From Betaproteobacteria bacterium RIFCSPLOWO2_02_FULL_68_150 (GTDB taxonomy: Bacteria > Pseudomonadota > Gammaproteobacteria > Burkholderiales > SG8-39): a stretch of DNA of 44,419 nt. The position numbers were made by a program, and so were the translations under genes. A model generated the notes under the pieces. It was given only the letters and a program-made list of their open reading frames with translations. It was not told the DNA's origin and did not search any database. Positions 12,716-29,212 of the stretch are shown piece by piece; within the stretch, counting starts at the first letter, position 1, and each line of letters begins with the position of its first letter. The DNA lies in the NCBI GenBank assembly GCA_001771975.1, contig MERE01000180.1, positions 1 to 44,419 on the forward strand. The letters are read 5' to 3'.

Positions 12716-13950
12716 GCAGATCGTATTTCGGCACCGACGGCATCCGCGGCACCGTAGGCGCAGCCCCGATGACACCGGAGGTGGTGCTGCGCCTCGGTTA
12801 CGCTGCCGGCAAGGTGCTCGCCGGCCGCGACGGCCAGCATCCGGCGGTCCTCATCGGCAAGGACACGCGCATCTCCGGCTACATGATCGAGGCGGGGATC
12901 GTGATCAGCGCGTCGCACAACCCCTACCCGGACAACGGCATCAAGTTCTTCTCCGGCGACGGCTACAAGCTGCCCGACGCGGTGGAGGCGGAAATCGAGC
13001 GCGCGCTCGACGCGCCGATGGGCTGCAACGAAGCGGCCAGCCTCGGGCGGGCGCGGCGCATCGACGATGCGCAGGGCCGCTACGTCGAATTCTGCAAGTC
13101 GACCTTTCCGGGCGAGCTCGACCTGAAGGGGATGCGCATCGTGGTCGACTGCGCCCAGGGCGCCGCCTATGACGTGGCGCCGCACGTGTTCCATGAACTC
13201 GGCGCCGATGTCGTGCCGATCGGGGTGGCGCCCGACGGCGTCAACATCAACCAGGCCTTCGGCGCCACCTCGCCGCAGACGCTGCTCGACGAAGTGAAGC
13301 GGCAGCACGCCGACCTGGGGCTCGCGCTCGACGGCGACGGCGACCGCCTCGTGATCGCCGATCGCGAGGGCAGGCTCTACGACGGCGATCAGCTGCTCTA
13401 CGCGATCGTGAAGCACCGGGCGGCAGCCAACCGCATCGCCGGCGTCGCCGGCACGCTGATGACCAATCTCGGCTTCGAGCAGGCGCTTGCCCGCATGCAG
13501 CTGCCGTTCGCACGCGCGCGGGTGGGCGATCGCTACGTGCTCGAGCTGCTGCGGGAGAAGGGCTGGCAGCTGGGCGGAGAGAACTCGGGCCATATCATCT
13601 GCCTGGACAAGCATACGACCGGAGACGGCATCATCTCCGCGCTGCAGGTGCTCACCGCGATGCGCGAGCGCGGCCGCACGCTCGCCGAACTGACCGCGGA
13701 TCTGGTGATGCTCCCGCAGGTGCTGCTCAACGTCGAGGTGCCGCGCGGCTTCGACTGGAAGCAGCATGCGGCGATCGCCGCGGCGCAGTCCCGGGCCGAG
13801 CGTTCGCTCGAGGGCCGCGGCCGGGTCCTGCTGCGGCCCTCGGGCACCGAGCCCGTGCTGCGCGTGATGGTCGAGGGCGAGCCCCGCGAGGCGATCGACG
13901 CGGCCGCCCGGGAGATCGCCGCAGCGGTGCGTCAGGCAACGGGGACTTGA
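12712..13950 (+). CDS. glmM: Phosphoglucosamine mutase, unusually short (in-frame internal deletion relative to canonical GlmM)
   Basis: The start ATG overlaps the folP stop (ATGA 12712..12715). [16 protein letters not shown].., phosphoserine loop [29 protein letters not shown]. It is 412 aa, against 445 aa for E. coli GlmM. Track ORF 12286..13950 is an N-terminal over-extension. Confidence 0.9.
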
Positions 13951-13960
13951 TCGAAATCAA
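13947..13960. promoter_or_regulatory. Perfect FNR/CRP-family palindrome TTGAT-CGAA-ATCAA upstream of frdA
   Basis: Read directly: ggggacTTGATCGAAATCAAattgg. Both half-sites match the FNR consensus TTGAT-N4-ATCAA. It overlaps the glmM stop codon, and its centre is 43.5 nt upstream of the frdA ATG. Confidence 0.6.
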
Positions 13961-13996
13961 ATTGGCCGTGGCTATCTTGCCCAACATGTCGCCACG

Positions 13997-15760
13997 ATGG
14001 AATCAGTCCAGTCCGACGTAGCCATAGTCGGCGCGGGGGGCGCGGGTTTGCGCGCCGCGATCGCGCTGGCGCAGTCCGATCCGAAACTCCGGATCGCCTT
14101 GATCTCGAAGGTCTATCCGATGCGCAGCCACACCTGCGCGGCCGAAGGCGGTGCCGCGGGGGTGATCAAGCCCGACGACAGCCTCGAGCATCATTTCAAC
14201 GACACCGTGGGCGGCGGCGACTGGCTGTGCGACCAGGACGCGGTCGACTATCTGGTGCAGGAGGCGCCCAAGGAGCTGATCCAGCTCGAGCACTGGGGCT
14301 GCCCCTGGAGCCGCGAGCCGGACGGCTCGGTGGCGGTGCGGCCCTTTGGCGGCATGAAGAAGCAGCGTACCTGGTTCGCCGCCGACAAGTCGGGCTTCCA
14401 CATCCTGCACACGCTGTTCCAGACCTCGCTGCAGTTCGCCTCGATCGAGCGCTTCGACGAGTATTACGTCACCGAGCTGCTGGTGCACGAGGGGCGCTGC
14501 GCCGGTGTGGTCGCGATCGAGATGCGCAGCGGCCAGATGCGGCGCTTCGATGCCCGCGCGCTGATCATCGCCGGCGGCGGCGCCGGCCGCATGTTCCCGT
14601 TCACCACCAACGGCGCCATCAAGACCGGCGACGGCATGGCGCTCGCCTACCGCGCCGGTGTCGCGCTGAAGGACATGGAGTTCGTGCAGTACCACCCCAC
14701 CGGGCTGCCGAGCACCGGCACGCTGCTGACCGAGGCCTGCCGCGGCGAAGGCGGCGTGCTGCTGAACAAGAACGGACGCCGCTTCCTGCAGGATTACGGC
14801 ATGGGTCCGGAGACGCCGCTCGGCAAGCCGGTCTTCAAGACGATGGAACTCGGCCCGCGCGACCGCGTCAGCCAGGCGTTCTGGCAGGAGCAGAAAAAAG
14901 GCAACATGATGCCGACGCAATGGGGCGACGCCATGCTGCTCGACATGCGCCATCTCGGCGAGAAGACGATCAACGAGCGGCTGCCGCTGGTGCGCGACAT
15001 GTCGATCAGCTACATGGGCGTCGACCCGGTCACCGACCCGGTGCCGGTGCGGCCGGTGGTGCATTACATGATGGGCGGCATCGACACCGACACGCGCGCA
15101 GCAACGCGCCTGCCGGGGCTGTTCGCCGCCGGCGAATGCGCCTGTGTCAGCATCAACGGCGCCAACCGTCTGGGCTCGAACTCGCTCACCGAGCTGCTGG
15201 TATTCGGGCGGCGCGCGGCGCTGAGCGCGCTGGAGTACGTCAAAGCGGGCGCGGCGCCGGTGAACGAGGGCGCGCGCGCGGCGCTGGCCACTGCGGCGCA
15301 GGGGCGCCTGCGTGAGCTGATGCAAAGGAGCGGCAGCGGCGAAACCGTTGCGGGCTTGCGCAAGGAGATGATGCAGACGATGGAGCAGAACGCGGGCATT
15401 TACCGCACCAGCGAAGGCCTCACCGAGGCCTGCGCCAAGCTCTCCGAGCTGCGCCGGCGCTATGCACGCATCGAGCTGCACGACAAGACCAACGTTTACA
15501 ACACCGACCTGCTGCAGGCGCTCGAGCTGGGCTCGATGCTCGATTGCGCCGAGGCGGTGACGCAGAGCGCGCTGGCGCGCCAGGAGTCGCGCGGCGCGCA
15601 CCAGCGACTCGATTTCACCGCGCGCGACGACGTCAAGTTCCTGCGCCATTCGCTGGCGCTCTACGCGCAGAACGAGCCGCCCCGCATCGACTATCGCGAC
15701 GTCGTCATCACCCGGTCGCAGCCGGGCGTGCGCGACTACTCGGGCGGGGGAGGCAAGTGA
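13997..15760 (+). CDS. frdA: Fumarate reductase flavoprotein subunit
   Basis: 587 aa. Near-colinear with E. coli FrdA as recalled: DVAIVGAGGAGLRAAIA..ISKVYPMRSHTCAAEGG..GGDWLCDQD..HWGCPWSR..RTWFAADKSGFHILHTLFQTSLQF..MEFVQYHPTGLP..CRGEGG..LQDYGMGPETPLG. Confidence 0.95.
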   Translation: MESVQSDVAIVGAGGAGLRAAIALAQSDPKLRIALISKVYPMRSHTCAAEGGAAGVIKPDDSLEHHFNDTVGGGDWLCDQDAVDYLVQEAPKELIQLEHWGCPWSREPDGSVAVRPFGGMKKQRTWFAADKSGFHILHTLFQTSLQFASIERFDEYYVTELLVHEGRCAGVVAIEMRSGQMRRFDARALIIAGGGAGRMFPFTTNGAIKTGDGMALAYRAGVALKDMEFVQYHPTGLPSTGTLLTEACRGEGGVLLNKNGRRFLQDYGMGPETPLGKPVFKTMELGPRDRVSQAFWQEQKKGNMMPTQWGDAMLLDMRHLGEKTINERLPLVRDMSISYMGVDPVTDPVPVRPVVHYMMGGIDTDTRAATRLPGLFAAGECACVSINGANRLGSNSLTELLVFGRRAALSALEYVKAGAAPVNEGARAALATAAQGRLRELMQRSGSGETVAGLRKEMMQTMEQNAGIYRTSEGLTEACAKLSELRRRYARIELHDKTNVYNTDLLQALELGSMLDCAEAVTQSALARQESRGAHQRLDFTARDDVKFLRHSLALYAQNEPPRIDYRDVVITRSQPGVRDYSGGGGK

Positions 15761-18074: not shown

Positions 18075-18716
18075 ATGGACCGCGCCGGGGCGCTGGCCGG
18101 CCTCAACCAGCGCCTCCTGGAGGCGTTCAGCCGCCGCACCACCGGCGCGCTGCGCGAAGTCCTTGCGCTGCGCGTGGCGCTGCCGCACATCGAGCCGTTT
18201 CTCGCCTTGAACGTCGCCAAGGAAGTGAAGAAGGACGCGCTCCTGATCAGGAGCGCGGCGCAGGCCGCGGCGGCGCCCGACGCGGCGCTGGCGCGCAGCC
18301 TGCTCGAGGAGGCGCGCGCCATCGACCGCGATTTCCTCGGCGACGTGGCGCGCTTTCCGGTGCGCATCGAGATTCCCTACGCGCGCATCGAGCCACTGCG
18401 CCTGCGGCGCATCGGGCGCGGGCTTGAACTGGCGCACCTGATCATCGCGGGCTGGCGCGGCGGACGCAAGCTGCGCGAGCTGCTGCCGCGCGACGCTCTC
18501 GAGCACCGCCTGCGCGAGCTGCTCGAGCTCTACGCCGAGGAAACGCAGGCGCTCAGCCACTCGGTCCAGCTGCCTGGCCCGCTCGCGCTGCTGCGCGAGC
18601 GCCTGGCGCGTGGCCTGCTGCGCGTGATGCGCGAGGCGGCGGGGCAGGTGTCGGCGCAGGCGGCACGCGCTGTGCACCGGCCGCGCCCGCGGGCGCTGCA
18701 GGAGCGCCCGGCGTGA
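18075..18716 (+). CDS. Hypothetical helical protein (213 aa), no family recognised
   Basis: Starts 12 nt after the methyltransferase stop. Strong G/C third-position bias in this frame. L/A/R/E-rich with no TM segment. The competing 472-aa minus-strand ORF also runs antisense across the methyltransferase and looks like a shadow ORF. Confidence 0.55.
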   Translation: MDRAGALAGLNQRLLEAFSRRTTGALREVLALRVALPHIEPFLALNVAKEVKKDALLIRSAAQAAAAPDAALARSLLEEARAIDRDFLGDVARFPVRIEIPYARIEPLRLRRIGRGLELAHLIIAGWRGGRKLRELLPRDALEHRLRELLELYAEETQALSHSVQLPGPLALLRERLARGLLRVMREAAGQVSAQAARAVHRPRPRALQERPA

Positions 18717-18868
18717 GGGAGGCGCAGACGCTGACGCTCGATCGCGACCTCGCCCGCTGCGGCACGACGGCGGCGCGCTTCGGGCGCGCCACGGACTTCA
18801 ACGGCGGCACGGGCGGAGACGCGGCGCCCCTCGCGCCGCCGCCCGATGTGCCAGAGGCGACCGCGTGA
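18713..18868 (+). CDS. Possible 51-aa ORF bridging the hypothetical gene and marR
   Basis: GTG 18713 overlaps the preceding stop (GTGA), and its own TGA overlaps the marR GTG start (GTGA 18865..18868). 47 of its 51 sense codons end in G/C. Translation VREAQTLTLDRDLARCGTTAARFGRATDFNGGTGGDAAPLAPPPDVPEATA. No homology recognised. Confidence 0.25.
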   Translation: MREAQTLTLDRDLARCGTTAARFGRATDFNGGTGGDAAPLAPPPDVPEATA

Positions 18869-19341
18869 CCCGCGCGCTCCCGCCCGCCGACCCCCGGTGG
18901 CCCGAGCGCACCTTCAGTCACCGGCTGATGCGGCTGGTGAACCTGATCGCAAAGCCTTTTTTCGCGCGCTACGCCGAGGAGACCGACCTGTCGATCAACG
19001 AGTGGCGCGTCCTCATGCTGCTCGCCGCGCATCCCGGCCTCACCGCGAGCGACATCGCCGAGCGCAGCGGGATGCTCCTCATGAACGTCAGCCGCGCCGT
19101 GCGGCGCCTTGCACGCATGCGCCGCGTGCAGCGCCGGCGCGACCCTGCCGATGCGCGCCGTGCCCTGCTCAGGCTGACCGCGCGCGGCGAGGCGATCTTC
19201 GCGCGCATCGCGCCGCAGGCCCGGCGCAGCGAGGAAAGCGTGCGCGGGCAGCTCAGCACCGCCGAGGCCGCGGAGTTCAGTCGCCTGCTCGATAAGCTGC
19301 TCGCCGGCCTGCGATCGCAGCGCGGCAACGGCCGTGCTTGA
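18865..19341 (+). CDS. MarR-family transcriptional regulator
   Basis: 158 aa. A winged-HTH core typical of MarR: LSINEWRVLMLLAAHPGLTASDIAERSGMLLMNVSRAVRRLARMRRVQRRRDPADARRALLRLTARGEAIF. Confidence 0.88.
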   Translation: MTRALPPADPRWPERTFSHRLMRLVNLIAKPFFARYAEETDLSINEWRVLMLLAAHPGLTASDIAERSGMLLMNVSRAVRRLARMRRVQRRRDPADARRALLRLTARGEAIFARIAPQARRSEESVRGQLSTAEAAEFSRLLDKLLAGLRSQRGNGRA

Positions 19342-19372
19342 CAACTGCCGGCCGGATGCTAACAATCGTTAG
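19338..19372 (+). promoter_or_regulatory. Putative promoter (TTGACA-17-AACAAT) overlapped by the inverted repeat CTAAC-N4-GTTAG (candidate MarR operator)
   Basis: TTGACA at 19338..19343 overlaps the marR stop. The -10-like AACAAT is at 19361..19366. The palindrome CTAACaatcGTTAG is at 19359..19372. The GGGAGGGA SD and GTG 19403 follow. Confidence 0.4.
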
Positions 19373-19402
19373 TATCCGTCCGAAGCCGCTCCGGGAGGGA
19401 GT

Positions 19403-20122
19403 GTGGCTGATGCCCCGATGATTGCCCGCCGCGTTCCGCTCGCGCCGATGCAGCGCATGGCCGCCGAGCACCTCGCGCACAGCCTGCGCGAGAGCGTGCC
19501 GGTGTCGATCCACGGCGCAGCGGACGCCGAGGCGCTGGTCGCGCTGCGCGCGCGACTGAATGCCGACGCCTCGCGCGCCGGCCGGCCGCGCGTCACGCTC
19601 ACGCACCTGCTGGTGAAGGCGGTGGCGCAGGCGCTGCGCGCCCACGAGCACCTGAATGCCACGCTCGAGGGCAAGGTGCTGTGTGTCTACGCAGACGTCA
19701 ACATCGGTGTCGCGCTCGCGCTGGCCAACGGCGGCCTCGTCGTGCCGGTGATCCGCGGCGCGGATCGCCTGACGCTCGACGAAGTCGCCGCGATGGCCGC
19801 GGAACAGGAAGCGCGCGCCGCGGCCGGCAAGCTCCAGCTCGCCGACGTCCAGGGTGCGACCTTCACGATCTCGAACGGCGGCATGGTGCCGAGCGTGCTC
19901 TGGACGACGCCAATCGTGCCGCGCGGTCAGGCGGCGATCCTCGGCATCGGCGCAATGCACCAAGCAGCGGTCGTGCGCGAAGGTGCGGTGGTCGCGCGCC
20001 GCCTGCTGCCGACCAGCCTGACGTTCGATCATCGCCTGGTCAACGGCGTGCCGGCGGCGCGCTTTCTCGAAGGGGTGCACCGCCTCGTCGCCGAGGCCGA
20101 GCGCATCGAACTGGGCATCTGA
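19403..20122 (+). CDS. 2-oxoacid dehydrogenase E2 acyltransferase, catalytic domain only (no lipoyl or subunit-binding domain)
   Basis: 239 aa. It begins directly at the catalytic-domain entry motif RRVPLAPMQRM. GLVVPVIRGADRLTLDEVA, GATFTISNGGM, and the catalytic DHRLVNG are present. Confidence 0.88.
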   Translation: MADAPMIARRVPLAPMQRMAAEHLAHSLRESVPVSIHGAADAEALVALRARLNADASRAGRPRVTLTHLLVKAVAQALRAHEHLNATLEGKVLCVYADVNIGVALALANGGLVVPVIRGADRLTLDEVAAMAAEQEARAAAGKLQLADVQGATFTISNGGMVPSVLWTTPIVPRGQAAILGIGAMHQAAVVREGAVVARRLLPTSLTFDHRLVNGVPAARFLEGVHRLVAEAERIELGI

Positions 20123-20137
20123 CTGCAAGGAGAACTC

Positions 20138-20380
20138 ATGCTTCTGGAGATCCGCGTGCCGGAGATGGGCAACGACGCCAAGGAGGCGATTCTGGTCGCC
20201 TGGCACAGACAGCCGGGCGACGCCGTGGCGCAGGGCGAGCCGCTCGCCGACGTGATGACGGACAAGGTCAACGTGGAGATCGTCAGCCCCGCGGCGGGCA
20301 CGCTGAAGGAGACGCGCGCCGCGCCCGACGAGACGGTGCCGGTGGGTGCCGTGATCGCGATGCTGGAGGTCGCCGAATGA
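20138..20380 (+). CDS. Free-standing lipoyl-attachment domain protein (80 aa)
   Basis: Own AAGGAG SD. MLLEIRVPEMG..VAWHRQPGDAVAQGEPLADVMTDKVNVEIVSPAAGTL..VPVGAVIAMLEV. The TDK lipoyl-lysine motif sits at the hairpin position. It is not the AMKM biotinyl motif. Confidence 0.85.
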   Translation: MLLEIRVPEMGNDAKEAILVAWHRQPGDAVAQGEPLADVMTDKVNVEIVSPAAGTLKETRAAPDETVPVGAVIAMLEVAE

Positions 20381-21372
20381 ATGCGCAATTCGCCGAAGCG
20401 CGGGCGCGCGTCGCGGAAGACGGCGCGCTCCTGCGGAGCATGTACGAGCTGATGCTGCTGACACGCGAGATCGATCGCGTCGCGGGCAAGGCCGACGGCC
20501 ACTGGCACGCCTGCGAGGGTGAGGAAGCGGTGATCGCCGCCTGCTACAGCGGGCTGCGCCCGGACGATTTCGCCGTGCCGCACTATCGCGGCATGCTGCC
20601 CGCGTCGGTCGCGCGCGGTGCCGACTTGCGCGCGCTCCTCGCCGGGCTCGCGGGCAAGACGACGAGTCACAGCGGCGGGCGCTACCGCTCGGACGTCTGC
20701 GGGCCGATCGAGCACCGGGTGATCGGCCTGTACTCCGGTGCGCTCGGACCGACGCTCTCCTACGCCGCGGGCACCGCGCTCGCGGCGAAGCTCGATCGGC
20801 GCGATGCAGTGACGATCGCGGTATTCGGCGACGGCACGTCCAACCGCGGAGATTTTCATGAAGCGCTGAACCTTGCCGCGGTGCTGAAGCTCGGCGTGGT
20901 CTATGTCTGCCAGAACAACCAGTTCGCGATCTCGACGCCTGCCGCGCGCGGCGTGGGCGCGCGCTCGATCGCGGACCGCGCGCCGGGCTACGGCATACCG
21001 GGTGTCGCGGCGGACGGCAACGACGCGATCGGGCTGCGCGCCGCGGTCGAGATCGCGATCGAGCGCGCGCGCCGCGGCGACGGACCGACGCTCATCGAGG
21101 CGCTCACCTATCGCATCTCCGGACATCTCGTCGCGGATGCCGCGGACTATCGCCCGGCGGAGGACGTGGCGGCGTGGCGCTCGCGCGATCCGCTCGCGAG
21201 GCTGCAGCGCCACCTGCTGGAGTGCGGCCTGCTGAAGCGGGACGAGGACGAGCGCCTCGCGCGCGAAACGCGCGAACGCGTGGACGCGGCGATGGCGCAG
21301 GCGCAGGCGGACCCGGACCCCGGCGCCGACGCGCTCGGACTGCAAGCGGTTTTCGCAGCGGCGCGGTCATGA
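20377..21372 (+). CDS. TPP-dependent dehydrogenase E1 alpha subunit, divergent copy 1
   Basis: ATGA overlap with the lipoyl gene. The TPP motif is present: AVFGDGTSNRGDFHEALNLAAVLKLGVVYVCQNNQFAIS..YRISGH. Several otherwise conserved E1alpha motifs are absent (see findings). Track ORF 19681..21372 is over-extended. Confidence 0.85.
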   Translation: MNAQFAEARARVAEDGALLRSMYELMLLTREIDRVAGKADGHWHACEGEEAVIAACYSGLRPDDFAVPHYRGMLPASVARGADLRALLAGLAGKTTSHSGGRYRSDVCGPIEHRVIGLYSGALGPTLSYAAGTALAAKLDRRDAVTIAVFGDGTSNRGDFHEALNLAAVLKLGVVYVCQNNQFAISTPAARGVGARSIADRAPGYGIPGVAADGNDAIGLRAAVEIAIERARRGDGPTLIEALTYRISGHLVADAADYRPAEDVAAWRSRDPLARLQRHLLECGLLKRDEDERLARETRERVDAAMAQAQADPDPGADALGLQAVFAAARS

Positions 21373-22346
21373 TCCGCCAGACGATGCAGGAGGCCATCGT
21401 CGCCGGCATCGCCGAGGAAATGCGGCGCGATGCGGACGTCTTCATCATGGGCCTCGACATTGGCCGCTTCGGCGGCCCGCTCAACTCGTGCAAGGGATTG
21501 TGGGAGGAGTTCGGCGCCACCGGCCGGGTGATCGATACGCCGATCTCCGAGGGCGCAATCGTCGGCGCGGGCGTGGGTGCCGCGCTCGCCGGCAAGCGGC
21601 CGATCGTGGACATCATGTTCCTCGAGTACCTGCCGCTCGTCATCCAGCAGCTCGGCTGCGACGGTGGCGCGATGCACTACTACTCCGCAGGCAAGGCGCG
21701 CGTGCCGCTCGTCGTGCGCGCAAAGTACGGCGTCGGGCCGTATCACGGCCATCCTTACGACTTTCACGCGTGGCTCATGCAGACCCCCGGCGTGAAGATC
21801 GCAGTGCCGGCCACCGCGCGCGATGCGAAGGGCCTGATGAAGGCGGCGATCCGCGACGACAGTCCGGTGCTCTTCATGGAGCACATGGCGCTCTACCATG
21901 GCCTGCGCGACGCGATTCCGGAGGAGGACTACGTCGTGCCGCTCGGCGTCGCGGAGGTGAAGCGCGCAGGGCGCGACGTCACCGTCATTGCGTCGGCCGC
22001 GATGGTGCGCAGGGCGCTCGCCGCGGCGCAGGCGCTCGCGAAAGAGGGGATCGAGATCGAAGTCGTGGACCTGCGCAGCATCGTGCCGCTGGACGAGGCG
22101 ACGATCCTCGACTCGGTGCGCAAGACCGGCCGCGCGCTCGTCGTGCAGGAGACGGTGTGCTTCGGCGGCTCGACCGCCGAGGTCGCCGCGCTGATCGCCG
22201 AGCGGTCGTTCCGCGACCTGAAGGCTCCGGTGCGACGCCTTGGCACGGCGTACGTTCCCGTGCCTTTCGCGCGCAGCCTCGAGAAGGCCGCCGTCCCCGA
22301 CGACGCCGCGATCGTCGCGGCGGCAAGGGATCTCGTGTCGCAGTAG
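21369..22346 (+). CDS. Dehydrogenase E1 beta subunit, divergent copy 1
   Basis: ATGA overlap. MIRQTMQEAIVAGIAEEMRRDADVFIMGLDIG..RVIDTPISEGAIVG..PGVKIAVPATARDAKGLMKAAIRDDSPVLFMEH..VDLRSIVPLD. Confidence 0.87.
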   Translation: MIRQTMQEAIVAGIAEEMRRDADVFIMGLDIGRFGGPLNSCKGLWEEFGATGRVIDTPISEGAIVGAGVGAALAGKRPIVDIMFLEYLPLVIQQLGCDGGAMHYYSAGKARVPLVVRAKYGVGPYHGHPYDFHAWLMQTPGVKIAVPATARDAKGLMKAAIRDDSPVLFMEHMALYHGLRDAIPEEDYVVPLGVAEVKRAGRDVTVIASAAMVRRALAAAQALAKEGIEIEVVDLRSIVPLDEATILDSVRKTGRALVVQETVCFGGSTAEVAALIAERSFRDLKAPVRRLGTAYVPVPFARSLEKAAVPDDAAIVAAARDLVSQ

Positions 22347-22354
22347 AGCGCCCA

Positions 22355-23374
22355 TTGGTCACACTTTCGCTCGACGAGGGCCTTCGGCTGTATCGCACGA
22401 TGGCGCGCATCCGCGCCTTCGAGAACGCGGCGGAAGAGGCTTCCCGGGGCGGCGTTTCGGCCTTTGGCGCTGCGCTTTCCGCCAGCGTCAGGGTACGCGG
22501 ACCGCTGCATCTGTCGACCGGGCAGGAGGCGGTGGCGGCGGGCGTCTGCGCGCAGTTGACCACGGCCGACCTCATCACTTCGACGCACCGCGGCCACGGC
22601 CACACCATCGCCAAGGGTGCCTCGGTCGAGCGCATGATGGGCGAGCTCTTCGGCAAGGTGAGCGGCTGCAACGGCGGCAAGGGCGGCTCGATGCACATCG
22701 CCGACTTCTCGGTCGGGATGCTGGGCGCGAACGGCGTGGTTGCCGCGGGAATTCCGATCGCGGTGGGCGCCGCGCATGCGCTGAAACTCCGGCAGCGCAA
22801 TGCGCTCGTCGCGTGCTTTTTCGGCGACGGCGCGATCAATCGCGGTCCGTTTCTCGAAGGACTCAACTGGGCGGCGGTCCACGCGCTGCCCGTGCTCTTC
22901 GTCTGCGAGGACAATCGCTGGTCGGCGACGACCGCGACCGGCGCCATGACCGCGGGCGACGGGGCGCTGGCGCGTGCTGCCGGCATCGGTGTGCCGGGCG
23001 AGCGGGTGGACGGCAACGACGTCTTCGCGGTGCACGCTGCCGCAGCAGAACTGGTGGCCCAGGTCCGCGCCGGGCAAGGGCCGCGATTGCTGCATGCGAT
23101 CACGTACCGCGTGAAGGGCCACGTTTCGGTGGATCCGGCCACCTATCGCGACGGCGAGGAAGTGGACCGCGCGCTCCAGGACGATCCGATTCCGGCGGCC
23201 GCCGCGCGGCTGAGGGCGGCCGGCGTCGCAGCCGAAGCGCTCGCGCAGATCGCGCTGGAAGCGGAGCGGGAAGTGGCTGCGGCGCTTGCCGCCGCCTCGG
23301 CGGCGGCGTGGCCGGACCGGGCAGCGTCGTATTCGGACATCCAGGACACCGGGAGCGACCGTTGGCTTGTCTGA
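22355..23374 (+). CDS. TPP-dependent dehydrogenase E1 alpha subunit, canonical copy 2 (acetoin/pyruvate/BCKA-type)
   Basis: TTG start is inferred, because the conserved LSLDEGLRLYRTMARIRAFE lies upstream of the first ATG. LSTGQEAVAAG, THRGHGH, GKGGSMH, GDGAINRG..CEDNRW, YRVKGHVSVDP. Confidence 0.86.
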   Translation: MVTLSLDEGLRLYRTMARIRAFENAAEEASRGGVSAFGAALSASVRVRGPLHLSTGQEAVAAGVCAQLTTADLITSTHRGHGHTIAKGASVERMMGELFGKVSGCNGGKGGSMHIADFSVGMLGANGVVAAGIPIAVGAAHALKLRQRNALVACFFGDGAINRGPFLEGLNWAAVHALPVLFVCEDNRWSATTATGAMTAGDGALARAAGIGVPGERVDGNDVFAVHAAAAELVAQVRAGQGPRLLHAITYRVKGHVSVDPATYRDGEEVDRALQDDPIPAAAARLRAAGVAAEALAQIALEAEREVAAALAAASAAAWPDRAASYSDIQDTGSDRWLV

Positions 23375-24309
23375 GCTACGCGCAGGCGGGCTGCCTCGCG
23401 CTGGAACGGGCCATGGCGGCCGATCCTGCGGTCGTGGTGCTCGGCGAAGACGTCGGTCGCGGCGGCATCTTCGGCCAGTACCGCGGGCTGCAGCAGAAGT
23501 TCGGCACGGCGCGCGTCCTGGACACGCCGATCTCGGAGGCGACGATCATGGGCGCGGCGGTGGGCATGGCGCTCGCCGGGCTGAAGCCCGTCGTCGAAAT
23601 GCGCGTGGTGGACTTCGCGCTCTGCGCGATGGACGAAATCGTCAACCAGGCGGCGAAGGCGCGCTACATGTTCGGCGGACAGGGGCGCGTGCCGCTGGTG
23701 GCGCGGCTGCCGATCGGCATCTGGACCGGCTCGGCGGCGCAGCACTCGCAGAGCCTCGAAGCGTGGTTCGCGCACGTGCCGGGCCTGGTCGTCGTCACGC
23801 CCTCGAATCCGCAGGACAACTGCTCGCTGCTCGCCGCGTCGCTCGAATGCGGCGATCCGGTGATCTACATGGAGCACAAGGAATTGTGGACGGTGGAGGC
23901 CGAGGTTGATCCGACCGCGAAAGTGCCGCTCGGCCGCGCCAGCGTGCTGCGCGCCGGCGCAGACGTGACGCTCGTCACCTGGGCGCGCACGGTACAGCCG
24001 GCGCTCGAGGCCGCAACGGCCGCCGCCGCACGCGGCGTGTCGGCGGAAGTCATCGACCTTCGCACGCTATGGCCCTGGGATCGCGAGACCGTGCTGGCCT
24101 CGGCCGCGAGGACGCGCCGGCTGGTGGTCGCGCACGAGGCGGTGCGGGTCGCGGGCTTCGGTGCGGAGATCGCGGCCACGGTGGCCGAGGAACTCGGCAT
24201 ACCGGTGCGACGCGTCGGCGGCGCGCGCATCCCGGTCGGCTACTCGAAGGTGCTCGAAGATGCCGCACGCATCAGCGCGGCGGCGATCCTGGAGTCCCTG
24301 CTGCAATGA
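23362..24309 (+). CDS. Dehydrogenase E1 beta subunit, canonical copy 2
   Basis: TTG start 6 nt after GGGAG, with a 13-nt overlap onto E1alpha-2. LSYAQAGCLALERAMAADPAVVVLGEDVG..RVLDTPISEATIMG..QHSQSLEAWFAHVPGLVVVTPSNPQD..IDLRTLWPWD. Confidence 0.86.
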   Translation: MACLSYAQAGCLALERAMAADPAVVVLGEDVGRGGIFGQYRGLQQKFGTARVLDTPISEATIMGAAVGMALAGLKPVVEMRVVDFALCAMDEIVNQAAKARYMFGGQGRVPLVARLPIGIWTGSAAQHSQSLEAWFAHVPGLVVVTPSNPQDNCSLLAASLECGDPVIYMEHKELWTVEAEVDPTAKVPLGRASVLRAGADVTLVTWARTVQPALEAATAAAARGVSAEVIDLRTLWPWDRETVLASAARTRRLVVAHEAVRVAGFGAEIAATVAEELGIPVRRVGGARIPVGYSKVLEDAARISAAAILESLLQ

Positions 24310-24764
24310 CGCCGAAGCGTACGCCGGAGGACTGGATCGCCGCGCTCGGCATGGCGCTGCTGGCGCTCATCACCATGGCCAACGTGGTGGTCCGTTATCT
24401 GACCGACCAGTCGTTTGCGTGGACCGAGGAATTTTCAGTGTTCCTGCTGGTGCTGACGACCATGGCGGGAGCGTCCGCGGCGGCGCTGCGCGAGCGGCAC
24501 ATCCGCATCGAGTTCTTCCTCGATCGCGGGCCGCCCGCGCAGCGCCGCGCGCTGGCGGCGGGCGGGACGGCCCTGGCCGTGGTTTTCTTTCTCGCCTTCG
24601 CGGTGCTCACCGGCCGCATGGCGTGGGATGACTTTCGCTACGGCGAGACGACGATGGGCGTCGGTTTGCCGCGCTGGTGGTATACGGGGTGGGTGCCCGC
24701 GCTGTCACTCGTCATTGCGCTGCGCACCGCGCAGGCGCTGCGGCGGCTCCTGCGAAGCGCATGA
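24306..24764 (+). CDS. TRAP transporter small permease (DctQ-type)
   Basis: 152 aa. ATGA overlap with the E1beta-2 stop. Four TM helices. LITMANVVVRYLTDQSFAWTEEFSVFLLV is a typical DctQ signature. Confidence 0.85.
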   Translation: MTPKRTPEDWIAALGMALLALITMANVVVRYLTDQSFAWTEEFSVFLLVLTTMAGASAAALRERHIRIEFFLDRGPPAQRRALAAGGTALAVVFFLAFAVLTGRMAWDDFRYGETTMGVGLPRWWYTGWVPALSLVIALRTAQALRRLLRSA

Positions 24765-26059
24765 TCGGCACGCTGCTCTTCGCGATCTTTCTCGTCCTCA
24801 TGTTCGGCGGCGTGCCGATCGGCGTCGCGCTCGGCATCGGCGGCATGATTTCGATCGCGCTGGCGAACGCGGACGCGCAGTATTTCGGGCTGCTCGCGGC
24901 GCCGCAGAATTTCTACGCCAGCATCGCCAAATATCCGCTGCTTGCGCTGCCGATGTTCGTGCTGGTCGGCTCGATCTTCGACCGCTCGGGCGTGGCGCAG
25001 CGCCTCGTCACCTTTGCCGTCGCGGTCGTGGGGCGCGGTCCCGGCATGCTGCCGATGGTGGCGATTCTCGTCGCCATGATCCTCGGGGGAATCTCCGGCT
25101 CCGGACCGGCGAACGCCGCCGCCGTGGGCGGCGTCATGATCGCCGCCATGTCGCGGGCCGGCTACCCCGCGGCGTTTTCCGCTTCCATCGTCGGCGCGGC
25201 CGCGGCCACCGACATCCTGATTCCGCCTTCGATCGCGTTCGTCGTCTACAGCGTGATGGTCGCGGGGGCTTCGGTTCCGGCGATGTTTGCCGCGGGGATG
25301 GTTCCCGGCGTGCTCGCCGGGATCGCGCTGATCGCGCCGGCGGTCTGGCTTTCGCGCCGCAACGGCTTTGGCAGCCACGAAGCCGACGAGCCGCGCCCCC
25401 GGTTCTGGCGCAGCCTGCGCGAAGCGGCGTGGGGAATCGCCGCGCCGGTGCTGATCCTGGGCGGCATGCGGCTGGGCTGGTTCACGCCGACCGAGGCCGC
25501 GGTGGTGGCGGTGTTCTACGGGCTTTTCGTCGGGATGGCGGTCCACGGCACGATCGGCTGGAAGGATCTCTTCGACATCTTCCGCGACGCGGGAGAGATC
25601 TCCGCCGTGATCATGATCGTGCTGGGCCTGGCGGGGATCTTCGCCTACTCGGTGAATACGCTCGGGCTTGCCGATCCGCTGGTGAAGGCGGTCACCGGGA
25701 GCGGGCTCGGCAGCACCGGGGCGCTGCTCGCGGTGTTCGCGGTGCTGCTTTTCGTCGGGGTGTTCCTGGATGGCGTCTCGATCTTCCTGATTTTCATTCC
25801 GCTTCTCACGCCGCTCATGAACGCCTTCGGCTGGGACGTGGTATGGTTTGGCGTCGTGCTGACGATGGCCGTGGCGATCGGGCAGATCACGCCGCCGATG
25901 GCCGTGAACCTGATGGTCGCCTGCCGGATGGCCGGCGTGTCGATGGAAAGTACGCTGCCCTGGGTCGGGTGGCTGGTGGCGAGCTTCGTGCTCGCCGCGT
26001 TCGCCGTGATTTTCGCGCCGCCGCTCGCGCTCTGGCTGCCGCGGGCGCTCGGCTACTAG
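24761..26059 (+). CDS. TRAP transporter large permease (DctM-type)
   Basis: 432 aa from the ATG that overlaps the DctQ stop (ATGA). MIGTLLFAIFLVLMFGGVPIGVALGIGG..SGSGPANAAAVG.., polytopic. The track ORF starts 84 nt too early. Confidence 0.92.
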   Translation: MIGTLLFAIFLVLMFGGVPIGVALGIGGMISIALANADAQYFGLLAAPQNFYASIAKYPLLALPMFVLVGSIFDRSGVAQRLVTFAVAVVGRGPGMLPMVAILVAMILGGISGSGPANAAAVGGVMIAAMSRAGYPAAFSASIVGAAAATDILIPPSIAFVVYSVMVAGASVPAMFAAGMVPGVLAGIALIAPAVWLSRRNGFGSHEADEPRPRFWRSLREAAWGIAAPVLILGGMRLGWFTPTEAAVVAVFYGLFVGMAVHGTIGWKDLFDIFRDAGEISAVIMIVLGLAGIFAYSVNTLGLADPLVKAVTGSGLGSTGALLAVFAVLLFVGVFLDGVSIFLIFIPLLTPLMNAFGWDVVWFGVVLTMAVAIGQITPPMAVNLMVACRMAGVSMESTLPWVGWLVASFVLAAFAVIFAPPLALWLPRALGY

Positions 26060-26089
26060 AATGCGTCAACTCAACCGGGAGGCACCACC

Positions 26090-27115
26090 ATGAAACGTCG
26101 CGTTTTCCTCAAAGCCACCAGCGCCGCCGCCGGCGCGCTCGCGTTCCCCGCCATCGCGCTGGGGCAGCAGTACAAGACCGAGTACAAGATGTCTACCGTC
26201 GTCCCGCCCGTGTTCGCCTGGGGCAAGGGCGGCGAGATCTTCGCCAACCTCGTGCGAGAGCGCACGGGCGGCCGCATCAACATCAAGCAGTACCCGGGCG
26301 CGTCGCTGGTGCAGGGCGACCAGACGCGCGAGTTCTCGGCGATGCGTCAGGGCGTGATCGACGTGCTGTGCGGCGCGCCGATCAACTGGTACAGCACGGT
26401 GCGCGAAATCGCCGTGTTCACGCTGCCGTTCATCACGCCCGACCACAAGTCGCTCGATGCAGTGCTGGCGAGCAGGGAGATCATGGACGAGTACTTCGGC
26501 CTCGTGCGCAAGGCCGGCGCCGAGCCGATCGCGGTCGGCGAGACGGGTTTCCGGCAGATCAGCAACTCCAAGCGCCCGATCGCCAAGCCGGATGACCTGA
26601 AGGGCCTGAAGATCCGCGTCGTCGGCAGCCCGATGTACGGCGAGATCATGTCCGGCATGGGAGCGAACCCGACGTTCATGAGCTGGGCGGATGCGCAGCC
26701 GGCGCTCGCCTCGGGCGCGGTCGACGGGCAGGAGAATCCGCTCGAAGTGTTCATGGTGGGGAAGATCCATACCCTCGGGCAGAAGTTCGTCACCAAATGG
26801 AATTACTCCAACGACATCCTGCTCTTCGCCATCGCCGGTTCGATCTGGCAGAGCTGGAGCGCGCAGGACCAGGGCATCGTGCGCCAGGCCGCGCAGGACG
26901 CGGCCCGCGAGCAGATCGGCATGGTGCGCAAGTATTTCGCCGAGGACGTGGAAAAGGTGCGCGCACTGGGCGTCGAGGTGAACGTGCCGACACCGGCCGA
27001 GATGTCCGCCTGGCAGGCGGCGAACCGGGGCGTCTACGCGAAGTGGAAAGCGCAGGTCAATCCGGGCCTGATCTCGAAGATCGAGCAGGTCGTCGCGCAG
27101 TCGCGCAAGGGCTGA
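26090..27115 (+). CDS. TRAP transporter solute-binding protein (DctP family)
   Basis: 341 aa. Signal peptide MKRRVFLKATSAAAGALAFPAIALG. The ..GFRQISN.. Arg lies at the family's carboxylate-binding position. ..VDGQENPL.. is also present. Confidence 0.92.
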   Translation: MKRRVFLKATSAAAGALAFPAIALGQQYKTEYKMSTVVPPVFAWGKGGEIFANLVRERTGGRINIKQYPGASLVQGDQTREFSAMRQGVIDVLCGAPINWYSTVREIAVFTLPFITPDHKSLDAVLASREIMDEYFGLVRKAGAEPIAVGETGFRQISNSKRPIAKPDDLKGLKIRVVGSPMYGEIMSGMGANPTFMSWADAQPALASGAVDGQENPLEVFMVGKIHTLGQKFVTKWNYSNDILLFAIAGSIWQSWSAQDQGIVRQAAQDAAREQIGMVRKYFAEDVEKVRALGVEVNVPTPAEMSAWQAANRGVYAKWKAQVNPGLISKIEQVVAQSRKG

Positions 27116-27116
27116 G

Positions 27117-27135
27117 CGCGCCGATCGCGGGCGCG
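27117..27135 (+). other. GC-rich stem-loop (CGCGCC-gatcgcg-GGCGCG) immediately after the DctP-type stop
   Basis: A 6-bp perfect stem with a 7-nt loop, read directly. There is no following T-tract, so it is not a classical intrinsic terminator. It may be an intercistronic mRNA-stability element. Confidence 0.25.
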
Positions 27136-27188
27136 TCGCGCCGCTGAGCACTATCGTCACCGCGGACAGCGTCACGAGGCTCGGCGAC

Positions 27189-27980
27189 GTGGCGGGGCGG
27201 GTGCTCGTCGCCGGCTCTCATGGCGGAGTGATCGCGGCGCAGTATGGCGCGCTCGCCGGCGCACGCGCGTTGATCCTCAACGATGCCGGCATCGGCAGGG
27301 ATCGCGCCGGCGTCGCGGGACTCGACTGGCTGGACGCCATCGGAATGGCGGCCGCCACGGTGGATTGCATGAGCGCGCGCATCGCCGACGGCAGGGACAT
27401 GCTCGCGCGCGGCGTGATCAGCTACGTCAACGCCAGCGCAGCGCGTTGCGGCGTCGCTGCAGGCCAGGCTTGTGCGGACGCGGCCGCAAGGCTCGGGCGT
27501 GCACCGCTGCCGCACGGCAAGCCGGCACCCTTTGCCGAGAATCGCTGGCGCATGGCCGAGGGTCCGCCCGAAGTGTGGGCGATCGATTCGCTCGGCAAAG
27601 TGCAGCCCGAAGACGCCGGCCGCATCCTGGTGATCGGCTCGCACGGCGCACTGCTCGGCGGGCGGCGCGAGTCGGCGCTGCAGATCGCGGCGGTGGCGGT
27701 GGTGCTGAACGACGCGGGCGTCGGGGCGGACCGCGCGGGCATCGCGCATCTGCCGGTGCTGGGCGAAGGCGGCATTGCCGCCACCACGGTGGATTGCATG
27801 AGCGCGCGCATCGGCGACGGACGTTCGATGTGGGAAAGCGGCGTGCTCTCGTATCTCAATGACGTGGCGGAGCGGCTCGGCGCGAGGCGCGGCGAGCGGG
27901 TGCAGGATTTTGCTGCGCGAGTCACCGTGGCCCACGCCAAGCGACGGGCGCCGAAGCGCGATGCTCCTGGGCAATCGTGA
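27189..27980 (+). CDS. Internally duplicated protein of unknown family (two ~140-aa repeats); the true start may be upstream
   Basis: 263 aa from GTG 27189. Repeat 1: GRVLVAGSHGG..LILNDAGIGRDRAGVAGL..AAATVDCMSARIADGRDM..GVISYVN. Repeat 2: GRILVIGSHGA..VVLNDAGVGADRAGIAHL..AATTVDCMSARIGDGRSM..GVLSYLN. High GC3 in this frame. Confidence 0.6.
   Translation: MAGRVLVAGSHGGVIAAQYGALAGARALILNDAGIGRDRAGVAGLDWLDAIGMAAATVDCMSARIADGRDMLARGVISYVNASAARCGVAAGQACADAAARLGRAPLPHGKPAPFAENRWRMAEGPPEVWAIDSLGKVQPEDAGRILVIGSHGALLGGRRESALQIAAVAVVLNDAGVGADRAGIAHLPVLGEGGIAATTVDCMSARIGDGRSMWESGVLSYLNDVAERLGARRGERVQDFAARVTVAHAKRRAPKRDAPGQS
27355..27384 (+). repeat. 30-nt perfect direct repeat, copy 1 (inside the duplicated gene)
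   Basis: ccacggtggattgcatgagcgcgcgcatcg is identical to 27784..27813, at an offset of 429 nt (143 codons). Confidence 0.9.
27784..27813 (+). repeat. 30-nt perfect direct repeat, copy 2
   Basis: Identical to 27355..27384. It encodes the TVDCMSARI core of the second protein repeat. Confidence 0.9.
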
Positions 27981-28053
27981 GCGCGGCTACCGAGTGCGCT
28001 GCGGCGCACAACATGCGCTAGAATCGCACGATTTCACTGTGGGCCCGCGTCAG

Positions 28054-28818
28054 ATGCGCAACCGGCTGGTGGCCGGCAACTGGAAGCTGCACGGCAGCCG
28101 CACCGCGAACCGCGCCCTGCTCGAGGCGATCGCGGACGGCGGCGGTGCCGGCGGGCCGGTGCAGTGCGCGGTGTGCGTGCCGTTTCCGTACCTCGCCCAG
28201 ATGGCCGAGCTGCTCGGCGGGACGCGCATCGCGTGGGGCGCGCAGGATGTCAGCGAGCATGCCTCGGGCGCCTATACCGGGGAAGTGTCTGCGGCGATGC
28301 TCGCGGAGTTCGGTTGCCGCTACGTGCTGGTGGGGCATTCCGAGCGCCGCCAGCTGCACGCTGAGACGGACGCGGCGGTCGCGGCCAAGTTCGCCGCAGT
28401 GCAGGGCAGTGCGATGACGCCGGTCCTGTGCGTCGGCGAAACGCTGAGCGAGCGCGACAGCGGCAGGACCGAGACGGTCGTGGCGCGGCAGCTGGATGCG
28501 GTCATCGCGCGCTGCGGCGCCGAGGCGTTCGCCAATGCCGTGGTGGCGTACGAGCCGGTGTGGGCGATCGGCACCGGGCGCAACGCCACGCCGGAACAGG
28601 CGCAAGCGGTGCACGCGTTCGTGCGCGTGCGCCTTGCGGCGCTGGGCAGGGCCACCGCGCAGGGGCTTCGCATCCTGTACGGCGGCAGCGTGAAGGCGGC
28701 CAACGCGGCGGCGATTTTTGCGATGCCCGACGTCGACGGCGGGCTGATCGGCGGGGCCTCGCTGGTGGCGGAGGATTTCCTGGCAATCGCGCGCGCAGCG
28801 GCGCGCGGCCAGGGCTGA
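28054..28818 (+). CDS. tpiA: Triosephosphate isomerase
   Basis: 254 aa from the internal ATG: [41 protein letters not shown]. The track ORF is over-extended upstream. Confidence 0.95.
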
Positions 28819-28831
28819 AAGAAAGGCGCAC

Positions 28832-29212
28832 ATGGATCTCTGGTTCACCGTGGTCATCGTGCTGCACGTGCTGGTCGCGCTGGCGATCATCGGGCTGGTG
28901 CTGCTTCAGCACGGCAAGGGTGCGGACATGGGTTCGGGTTTCGGCGGCGGCTCATCGGGGAGCCTCTTCGGCGCCACCGGCTCGGCGAATTTTCTCTCGC
29001 GCATGACGGCTGCGCTGGCGACGATCTTCTTTCTCACCAGCCTCGGGCTGGCGTACTTCGCGACGCACAAGCCGAAGACCTCGGGCAGCATCATGGATGC
29101 GGTGAAGAGCGAGCCGCCGCCGGCGGCCCAGCCTGCGCCCAGGTCGCCGCAGGCCGAGGTGCCGAAGCCCGCGGCGGCCGAAGGGTCGAAGGCGAAGGAT
29201 GTGCCCAATTAA
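28832..29212 (+). CDS. secG: Preprotein translocase subunit SecG
   Basis: 126 aa. [38 protein letters not shown] is the SecG signature. Conserved tpiA-secG pairing. Confidence 0.92.

Follow-up and report, generated by a model that had tools for sequence, protein, structure and literature searches.

Ten genes, all on one strand, lie between a MarR-family regulator gene and tpiA on contig MERE01000180.1 of Betaproteobacteria bacterium RIFCSPLOWO2_02_FULL_68_150 (assembly GCA_001771975.1). The contig stretch analysed, 44,419 nt long, is hereafter referred to as the window. The ten genes encode a 2-oxoacid dehydrogenase-like system whose acyltransferase (E2) is divided between two proteins, together with two thiamine diphosphate (ThDP)-dependent E1 pairs, a tripartite ATP-independent periplasmic (TRAP) transporter and an internally duplicated protein. 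Gene starts and junctions were read directly from the sequence, domains were assigned by Pfam search and equivalogs by NCBIfam.

The marR gene (18865..19341, plus strand, as are all genes that follow up to the tpiA boundary; its start codon is uncertain) precedes a gene for an E2 catalytic domain alone (19403..20122), whose 239-aa product matches PF00198 only (residues 9-235, E 1e-63). Next comes an 80-aa free lipoyl-domain protein (20138..20380; PF00364, E 8e-18) with the lipoyl-lysine, K43, in a TDK motif. Two E1 pairs follow: the ThDP-binding subunit E1alpha-1 (20377..21372; PF00676, E 8e-72) with E1beta-1 (21369..22346; PF02779 and PF02780), and E1alpha-2 (22355..23374; PF00676, E 1e-65; TTG start, alternative ATG at 22400) with E1beta-2 (23362..24309; PF02779 and PF02780; TTG start). 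The transporter genes code for the small membrane subunit DctQ (24306..24764; PF04290, E 6e-30), the large membrane subunit DctM (24761..26059; PF06808, E 1e-88) and the periplasmic binding protein DctP (26090..27115; PF03480). The last gene, for a tandem DUF1805-like protein (27189..27980, with a start possibly near 27144), is followed by tpiA, which begins at ~28054 and forms the downstream boundary of the block.

Four junctions (lipoyl/E1alpha-1, E1alpha-1/E1beta-1, E1beta-2/DctQ and DctQ/DctM) are ATGA overlaps, and an overlap of 13 nt joins E1alpha-2 to E1beta-2. Elsewhere in the block there are gaps of 15, 8, 30, 73 and 73 nt, the 8-nt one separating E1beta-1 from E1alpha-2; marR is 61 nt from the E2-core gene. 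A pattern search revealed no terminator-like site in any intergenic gap of the block; five matches to the pattern were all within genes, at a frequency equal to that in shuffled sequence. No E3 (lpd) gene was found among the window open reading frames (ORFs) scanned, and the subunit-binding domain, PF02817, was absent from all ten proteins in the Pfam search. A first-pass annotation of this DNA had described ten genes with these domains and with overlapping or near-abutting junctions, a DctQ gene overlapping the stop codon of E1beta-2 (read in the sequence as ATGA at 24306), and neither an E3 nor a subunit-binding domain; this description was borne out in full. Given the conserved synteny in other genomes described below, the arrangement is far beyond chance.

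In textbook 2-oxoacid dehydrogenase complexes the lipoyl arms are covalently tethered to the E2 core, which docks E1 and E3 via a binding domain. The E2 of the window is not such a single lipoyl-subunit-binding-catalytic chain. Neither PF02817 nor PF00364 was found in the 239-aa protein by Pfam, the lipoyl domain is encoded by a separate downstream gene, and the order of genes, catalytic then lipoyl, is inverted relative to the canonical E2. Since the gap to marR is only 61 nt, there is no room for a subunit-binding domain upstream of the core. The acyltransferase active site of canonical E2s (histidine of DHRxxDG/NG, Ser/Thr) is present: across 16 aligned family members, H210 in DHRxxNG and the TFTISN motif vary little or not at all. 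The catalytic domain is full length and ends like a canonical E2, with the consensus L-x-A-x-P-x-R-x-x-L-G. Models of SucB, AcoC and AceF match the free lipoyl protein through their N-terminal lipoyl domains. The missing subunit-binding domain argues against the usual mode of E1-E2-E3 assembly.

With the 239-aa protein as query, ~90 clusters of 206-280-aa proteins with PF00198 as their sole domain were found, with identities to the query from 98% down to ~43%. They originate from JGI, ENA, NCBI and Logan assemblies and include Rubrivivax, Hyphomicrobiales and other alpha- and betaproteobacterial metagenome-assembled genomes. Full-length lipoyl-subunit-binding-catalytic E2s first appear at 46% identity or less to the window core, and no close relative with a fused gene was present among the matches. 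Nine independent genomic contexts of the core were compared (related loci are referred to by number: L001, L003, L005, L006, L007, L093, L094, L095 and L096). A free lipoyl gene (78-80 aa) and an E1 alpha/beta pair accompany the core-only E2 in every one of them, and eight of the nine have the window order of core, lipoyl, E1alpha, E1beta. The most distant cluster (L096 201-6999, 48% identity) is arranged as lipoyl, E1alpha, E1beta, class-III aminotransferase, core, class-I/II aminotransferase and major facilitator superfamily (MFS) transporter. The two aminotransferases fit a 2-oxoacid substrate for that lineage, and the gene content suggests a route from amine to 2-oxoacid to acyl-CoA there. 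In a plasmid collection the same query matched just ordinary E2s of less than 40% identity. A genome collection was searched with peptide patterns of the core, which are generic E2 motifs; among the matches listed there were ordinary E2s of 28-41% identity and no isolate carrying the cluster.

These data bear directly on whether the split E2 could be an artefact of assembly or of a frameshift, or else a normal E2 gene decaying as a pseudogene. A frameshift or rearrangement unique to this assembly had been named in the first-pass annotation as one of the findings that would overturn its reading, and conservation of the split disposes of that objection. The ~90 clusters are independent and were obtained from numerous samples and sources, nine of nine contexts share one architecture, and the catalytic residues are conserved. 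A catalytic-then-lipoyl order cannot arise by frameshift in a normal E2, and the lipoyl gene has its own Shine-Dalgarno sequence, AAGGAGAA. Nothing was found in favour of an artefact or a pseudogene, and its probability is next to nil. A frameshifted or mis-assembled E2 is excluded by the gene order, the 61-nt marR gap and the conserved architecture, and the artefact and pseudogene explanations are ruled out by the number of clusters, the uniform contexts and the intact catalytic residues. Thus, the division of E2 into a catalytic-only gene followed by a lipoyl-only gene, without a subunit-binding domain, which had been proposed from the window by itself, holds both by Pfam and by conservation in relatives.

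The two E1 pairs are, as had been claimed, clearly different heterodimers, with 35% identity between the alpha and 39% between the beta subunits. Both E1alpha subunits belong to PF00676, and each keeps the GDG...(N/D)N ThDP/Mg motif and the YRxxGH histidine, which in E1alpha is used for lipoyl (lipoamide) acylation. The ThDP motif and catalytic histidines expected of canonical E1s are found in both pairs, the histidine context of E1beta-1 being atypical: in all six members of its family aligned, the usually invariant AAQHSQS is replaced by GP(Y/F)HGH(A/P)YD, with the histidine retained. This divergence suggests that the substrate pocket differs. In E1beta-2 the canonical AAQHSQS is present. 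Matches of the window E1s to the E1 chains of PDB entries 1W85, 1UM9, 1NI4 and 1DTW had E values of 1e-36 to 1e-50. E1alpha-1 is always accompanied by the E2 core and the lipoyl protein (58-72% identity in L001-L007). Orthologues of E1alpha-2 adjoin TRAP genes of the 4P8B-like type (see below) in L001, L007, Azospirillum and Thermus, and E1beta-2 is 63% identical to the Azospirillum and 52% identical to the Thermus subunit. When compared with AcoA of canonical acetoin dehydrogenase (aco) operons from Enterococcus and Klebsiella, E1alpha-2 was 42-43% identical (253 and 226 bits); its match to rhizobial PdhA scored 194 bits. Because the alpha subunit is somewhat nearer to AcoA than to PdhA and the beta subunit is without such preference, E1-2 is on sequence grounds a family of its own.

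Pairwise protein comparison between the window and related loci separated the block into two modules. Module 1 consists of MarR, the E2 core, the lipoyl protein, E1alpha-1 and E1beta-1, which travel together wherever the contig shows them. It stands alone in L006 and L093. In L003, L005, L007, L094 and L095 it is followed by one or two short-chain dehydrogenases/reductases (SDRs) and by another TRAP system, whose genes are ordered PQM. The binding protein of the latter is ~25% identical to window DctP, and a structure search found no close solved relative of it; the SDRs gave generic matches only and no substrate clue. Module 2 consists of E1alpha-2, E1beta-2 and a TRAP transporter with a binding protein orthologous to window DctP; in the window the duplicated protein goes with it. 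In L001 and L007 it is located upstream of module 1. On plasmid p2 of Azospirillum argentinense module 2 is found by itself, as a xenobiotic response element (XRE)-cupin regulator, E1alpha, E1beta and DctPQM, without a dedicated E2. Locus L089 contains an E1 alpha/beta pair and the duplicated protein without module 1. Megaplasmids of Thermus thermophilus carry a TrmB-type regulator, E1alpha (annotated acoA), E1beta, an 82-aa ORF, DctPQM and an MFS transporter. The 82-aa ORF (L092 10934-11182, plasmid pTF24b, AP031329), annotated as hypothetical, is a free lipoyl domain (PF00364, E 3e-15, ESDK motif); the 18.8 kb of pTF24b around it carry no gene annotated as an E2 core. A free lipoyl carrier beside an E1 pair and a TRAP system of this type thus exists also outside Proteobacteria.

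The first-pass annotation had treated the block as a single ten-gene operon. Adjacency and junctions agree with this, and the locus comparison does not agree with one indivisible unit: as judged from gene neighbourhoods, two modules, each conserved on its own, are fused in this operon, and the TRAP system belongs with E1-2 and not with the whole gene set. One may then ask whether these are two independent systems that are simply adjacent, with the E2 core and the lipoyl protein serving E1-1 only, and E1-2, its transporter and the DUF1805-like protein being self-contained and either using lipoyl domains of the housekeeping pyruvate dehydrogenase (PDH) or 2-oxoglutarate dehydrogenase (OGDH) E2 or working non-oxidatively, as a ThDP lyase or carboligase. 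The separate occurrences speak for it: module 2 is alone in Azospirillum, L089 and many metagenomic loci, and module 1 is alone in L006 and L093 and linked to a different TRAP system and SDRs in L003, L005, L094 and L095. However, the modules are joined directly in the window and adjacent in two further gene orders, in L001 and L007; such recurrent adjacency in three arrangements points to a functional link rather than chance. Only 8 nt, with no terminator-like site, lie between E1beta-1 and E1alpha-2, and the lipoyl-acylation histidine is kept in both E1alpha subunits. The Thermus module 2, moreover, has its own free lipoyl protein, and orthologues of E1-2 therefore probably do use a free carrier. 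We regard two independent systems as the chief alternative explanation, possible but rather unlikely.

Three further sets of genes were observed next to these modules. Directly upstream of module 2 in L001 (2148-4291) are a hydroxypyruvate/2-oxo-tetronate isomerase gene, above both NCBIfam cut-offs, and a glycerate-2-kinase-like gene. In L094, genes for HMG-CoA-lyase-like, enoyl-CoA hydratase and ThDP enzymes are divergent from MarR. Both the L001 and the L094 genes may, by their annotation, encode downstream steps. In two Burkholderiales loci a Cupin_7 (PF12973) gene lies beside the 4P8B-like TRAP genes on the opposite strand (L088 2870-3652, minus strand; L090 11487-12449, minus strand); in L090 it adjoins a MarR gene, and it is not in the window.

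All three components of a TRAP transporter, Q, M and P, are present in the window, with TIGR00786 (DctM) and NF037995 above their cut-offs. Window DctP matches PDB entry 4P8B over its full length with 57% identity (E 2.4e-118), the next-best structures being at ~1e-33. We take 4P8B to be H16_A1328 of Cupriavidus necator with bound (S)-2-acetolactate; the structure reportedly comes from the Enzyme Function Initiative survey. Since identity is 57% over the full length, DctP probably binds the same ligand as 4P8B, which makes 2-acetolactate or a close analogue a lead for the imported substrate. Import by a TRAP system makes a carboxylate the probable substrate. Acetolactate, the carboxy analogue of methylacetoin, could be attacked at its ketone by an E1 of the acetoin dehydrogenase type; pyruvate would be released, and the hydroxyethyl-ThDP retained would reductively acetylate a lipoyl group. 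To our knowledge, no catabolic route for 2-acetolactate-like compounds that would match this TRAP transporter has been described. A review lists 2-acetolactate as one of the new TRAP ligands from the survey that solved these structures, without naming 4P8B for it (PMC5812351), and a later preprint on the structure of TRAP transporters includes H16_A1328 among the systems it aligns.

The protein encoded by the last gene had been described as internally duplicated and of no recognisable family. The duplication stands: the two halves are 51% identical over 103 aa (E 1e-28). The second part does not, as the protein is a weak relative of DUF1805 (PF08827). It scores 16.8 bits, under the cut-off of 29.5, and 16 of 19 diverse members of its family match PF08827 (E up to 1, best 1.9e-8). 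The family comprises 1,101 clusters at 50% identity, and since nearly all members are ~270 aa long, the whole family is duplicated. AlphaFold models of the whole protein and of one half both have a predicted local distance difference test score (pLDDT) of 83, and each half forms a small beta-alpha-beta domain. Foldseek gave no significant match for the whole model; the best match of a single half was TA1206 (1QW2), whose function is unknown, and was sub-threshold (template modelling score 0.51-0.55, probability 0.87, E 0.46). Sequence and profile searches of PDB with the duplicated protein found no match. The in-frame translation upstream of the GTG at 27189 (window 27099-27188, ...STIVTADSVTRLGDVAG...) matches the N-terminal consensus of homologues, ...VAAESVTQLxDVAGK..., suggesting that the true N-terminus is probably ~15-20 codons upstream of that GTG. 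No ATG, GTG or TTG is present in the in-frame stretch 27099-27188; the gene may use a rare start (CTG at ~27144, or ATC), or its product may have lost part of the N-terminus in this genome.

In close Burkholderiales relatives the gene for the duplicated protein lies between module 2 and tpiA-secG-nuo, which alone could be mere synteny. A metagenome scan with a close-set alignment of the protein yielded 80 loci (L097-L176, 46-72% identity), in which its neighbours were clustered without preset families and ORFs were scored by codon-position GC. Orthologues of E1-2 were within 4 kb of the duplicated protein in 28 of the 80 loci, in four different arrangements, and 23 of these 28 loci were without tpiA within 7 kb. 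In 23 of the 80 loci an acetolactate-synthase-like ThDP enzyme of ~586 aa was within 4 kb (for example L127 6364-8121, minus strand). This enzyme has TPP_enzyme_N/M/C domains and is under all NCBIfam cut-offs, including that of its best model, TIGR00118. Both E1-2 and the ~586-aa enzyme were found in L134, L135, L141 and L127. Among loci with at least 2.5 kb on both sides, one or the other enzyme was within 4 kb in 22 of 30. In Azospirillum, Thermus, L001 and L007 the duplicated protein was absent within ~9-10 kb of module 2. By this linkage, the duplicated protein is a genuine partner of two kinds of ThDP enzyme whose architectures are unrelated. Such partnership is easier to reconcile with action on a small molecule common to both, acetolactate for example, than with the part of a structural subunit; any specific activity, such as a decarboxylase- or isomerase-type one, is speculation.

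A fumarate-reductase/succinate-dehydrogenase-type flavoprotein (PF00890 and PF02910) is encoded directly downstream of the DUF1805 gene in 11 metagenomic loci (L105 5687-7462 and ten others). In the window it is found instead at 13868-15760, ~11 kb upstream; the association may be mere local synteny.

Genes for MarR proteins with PF01047/PF12802 adjoin the E2 core in L001, L003, L005, L006, L007, L094 and L095. In L093 the contig ends just upstream and no MarR is visible beside the cluster, and none was called next to that of L096. The window MarR was assigned through its 40-59% identity to those of L001, L003 and L005. In front of the E2-core gene a pattern search found a promoter-like site, TTGACA and AACAAT with a 17-nt spacer (19338..19366, plus strand; 10 of 12 positions), the sole sigma-70-like match in 18700-28900. 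A palindrome, CTAACAATCGTTAG (19359..19372), overlaps the -10 element. A palindrome of the form TAAC-N4-GTTA is present upstream of the E2-core gene in six of six loci (window, L001, L003, L005, L006 and L007), each with MarR adjacent. We conclude that this palindrome is a probable MarR operator, as predicted from its position and conservation.

The gene content, domains, catalytic motifs, conservation of the split E2, linkage of modules and match to 4P8B lead us to the following reading, which we hold with about even confidence: the block would be a MarR-controlled catabolic operon of two fused modules, encoding a lipoyl-dependent system similar to 2-oxoacid and acetoin dehydrogenases, with a separate swinging-arm protein. 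The ten genes would be co-transcribed and repressed by MarR at TAAC-N4-GTTA until an effector binds. DctQMP would import a small branched hydroxy- or oxo-carboxylate, for which 2-acetolactate or a close analogue is the best lead. E1-2, tied to this transporter across phyla, would cleave a C-C bond of the substrate with ThDP and reductively acylate the lipoyl-lysine K43; in the case of acetolactate, cleavage of the acetoin dehydrogenase type would yield pyruvate and hydroxyethyl-ThDP. The stand-alone E2 catalytic protein would then transfer the acyl group from the dihydrolipoyl protein to CoA, and the carrier, acting outside any stable complex, would be reoxidised by a housekeeping dihydrolipoamide dehydrogenase encoded elsewhere. 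E1-1 would feed a second substrate, perhaps the 2-oxoacid released by E1-2, to the same carrier and acyltransferase; the shuttling of one free lipoyl protein between both E1s and the acyltransferase, put forward in the first-pass annotation, is plausible. The tandem DUF1805-like protein would act on or with a metabolite common to E1-2 and acetolactate-synthase-like enzymes.

Several points weigh against this reading. Its support is wholly computational. In Azospirillum and many metagenomic loci, module 2 has no E2 or lipoyl gene dedicated to it, and E1-2 may thus not need this E2 core. E1alpha-2 leans towards AcoA but E1beta-2 shows no such preference, and E1-2 is not clearly of the acetoin type. 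NCBIfam equivalog matches of the E1 and E2 proteins are all under curated cut-offs; for this reason, none of them is an ordinary PDH, OGDH or branched-chain 2-oxoacid dehydrogenase (BCKDH) orthologue. The acetolactate assignment of 4P8B is a lead rather than an established fact, and the ligand reportedly co-purified, so that the physiological ligand may differ. Finally, without a subunit-binding domain E1 and E3 may not meet the carrier efficiently.

Alternatively, the system might not be dissociated at all: the catalytic-only E2 would form a 24- or 60-mer core on which the E1s, E3 and the lipoyl protein dock via interfaces that replace the subunit-binding domain, in a stable complex with the arm held non-covalently. 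E2 cores are generally known to assemble from catalytic domains alone, and the domain is full length here with a C-terminus like that of canonical E2s. Yet Pfam detected no E1- or E3-binding sequence element, the subunit lengths are ordinary, the gene order is inverted relative to canonical E2, and the lipoyl protein is also present in the Thermus operon, which has no E2 core gene. Such a complex is in our opinion improbable. A further-reaching form of the catabolic-operon reading is that of a naturally dissociated lipoyl system in which one free carrier and one core-only acyltransferase serve interchangeable E1 modules, each with its own TRAP transporter, and in which the tandem DUF1805 protein, as a new accessory enzyme in acetolactate/acyloin metabolism, assists ThDP enzymes of both the E1 and the acetolactate-synthase type. 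We put this forward tentatively, as something that may well prove wrong.

Full-text searching of the literature found no account of a split E2, or of a free lipoyl protein with a TRAP transporter, and in this respect the initial remark that this was not recognised as a characterised pathway was upheld. Several known systems are nevertheless comparable. The features in common with acetoin dehydrogenase, AcoABC(L), are a ThDP E1 alpha/beta pair of the heterotetramer type, acyl transfer to CoA that depends on lipoyl, and an operon for catabolism with its own regulator. AcoAB cleaves an acyloin rather than decarboxylating a 2-oxoacid, a chemistry that would suit acetolactate. In the canonical aco operons compared (Klebsiella pKOCBH-A and an Enterococcus faecalis plasmid) there are a single-chain E2 of 401-509 aa, lpdA and one E1; E2s of all aco and pdh operons fetched were of 385-509 aa, with lpdA in the aco operons. 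In contrast, the window contains neither an AcoC-type E2 nor acoL, and has two E1 pairs, a 239-aa core with an 80-aa lipoyl protein and a TRAP importer. PDH and BCKDH complexes with alpha2beta2 E1 (Geobacillus 1W85, Thermus 1UM9, human 1NI4 and 1DTW) share the E1 families, the ThDP and histidine motifs and PF00198. In these complexes E1 and E3 are tethered by a one-chain lipoyl-subunit-binding-catalytic E2, whereas in the window E2 is split, the subunit-binding domain is missing and the active-site motif of E1beta-1 is divergent.

The proposed logic resembles that of the glycine cleavage system, in which a small free lipoylated protein, H, shuttles between separate enzymes and a shared dihydrolipoamide dehydrogenase reoxidises it. 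Instead of an H protein (PF01597), the window has a lipoyl domain of the E2 type (PF00364), whose partners are ThDP E1s and an acyltransferase in place of the P and T proteins. The corynebacterial and mycobacterial OdhA/Kgd (NF008907 was matched) has an E2o catalytic domain without a lipoyl domain and relies on the lipoyl domain of another polypeptide. There, however, the catalytic domain is fused to E1o and borrows lipoyl domains of full-length E2p within a supercomplex, while in the window both proteins are free-standing. The window arrangement is homologous to neither the glycine cleavage nor the OdhA arrangement. Among solved structures, the nearest relative of its DctP is 4P8B, taken to be from Cupriavidus necator.

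The locus presents no new chemistry, but it departs, naturally and in a conserved manner, from an assembly principle of the textbooks; a plausible lead to the substrate and a so far unstudied family of accessory proteins come with it. The natural separation of core and arm, without a docking domain, would offer a ready-made test of how much tethering and assembly weigh in catalysis and substrate channelling. If the system is indeed dissociated, covalent tethering of the arm and assembly mediated by the subunit-binding domain would be dispensable in vivo, and 2-oxoacid dehydrogenase complexes would be tied mechanistically to the glycine cleavage system. Three groups of proteins that are unnamed at present would gain functions, namely the E2 cores of ~240 aa, the lipoyl proteins of 80 aa and the tandem DUF1805 family, and a catabolic route for 2-acetolactate-like compounds would be suggested.

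Outside the block, Rfam revealed no RNA family at gathering score in window 1-44419, hence no tRNA between secG and nuoA. Between a gene for a UbiE-type methyltransferase and marR, the window also contains a 213-aa ORF (18075-18716) that is without a Pfam family and has a coding-like GC content at third codon positions.

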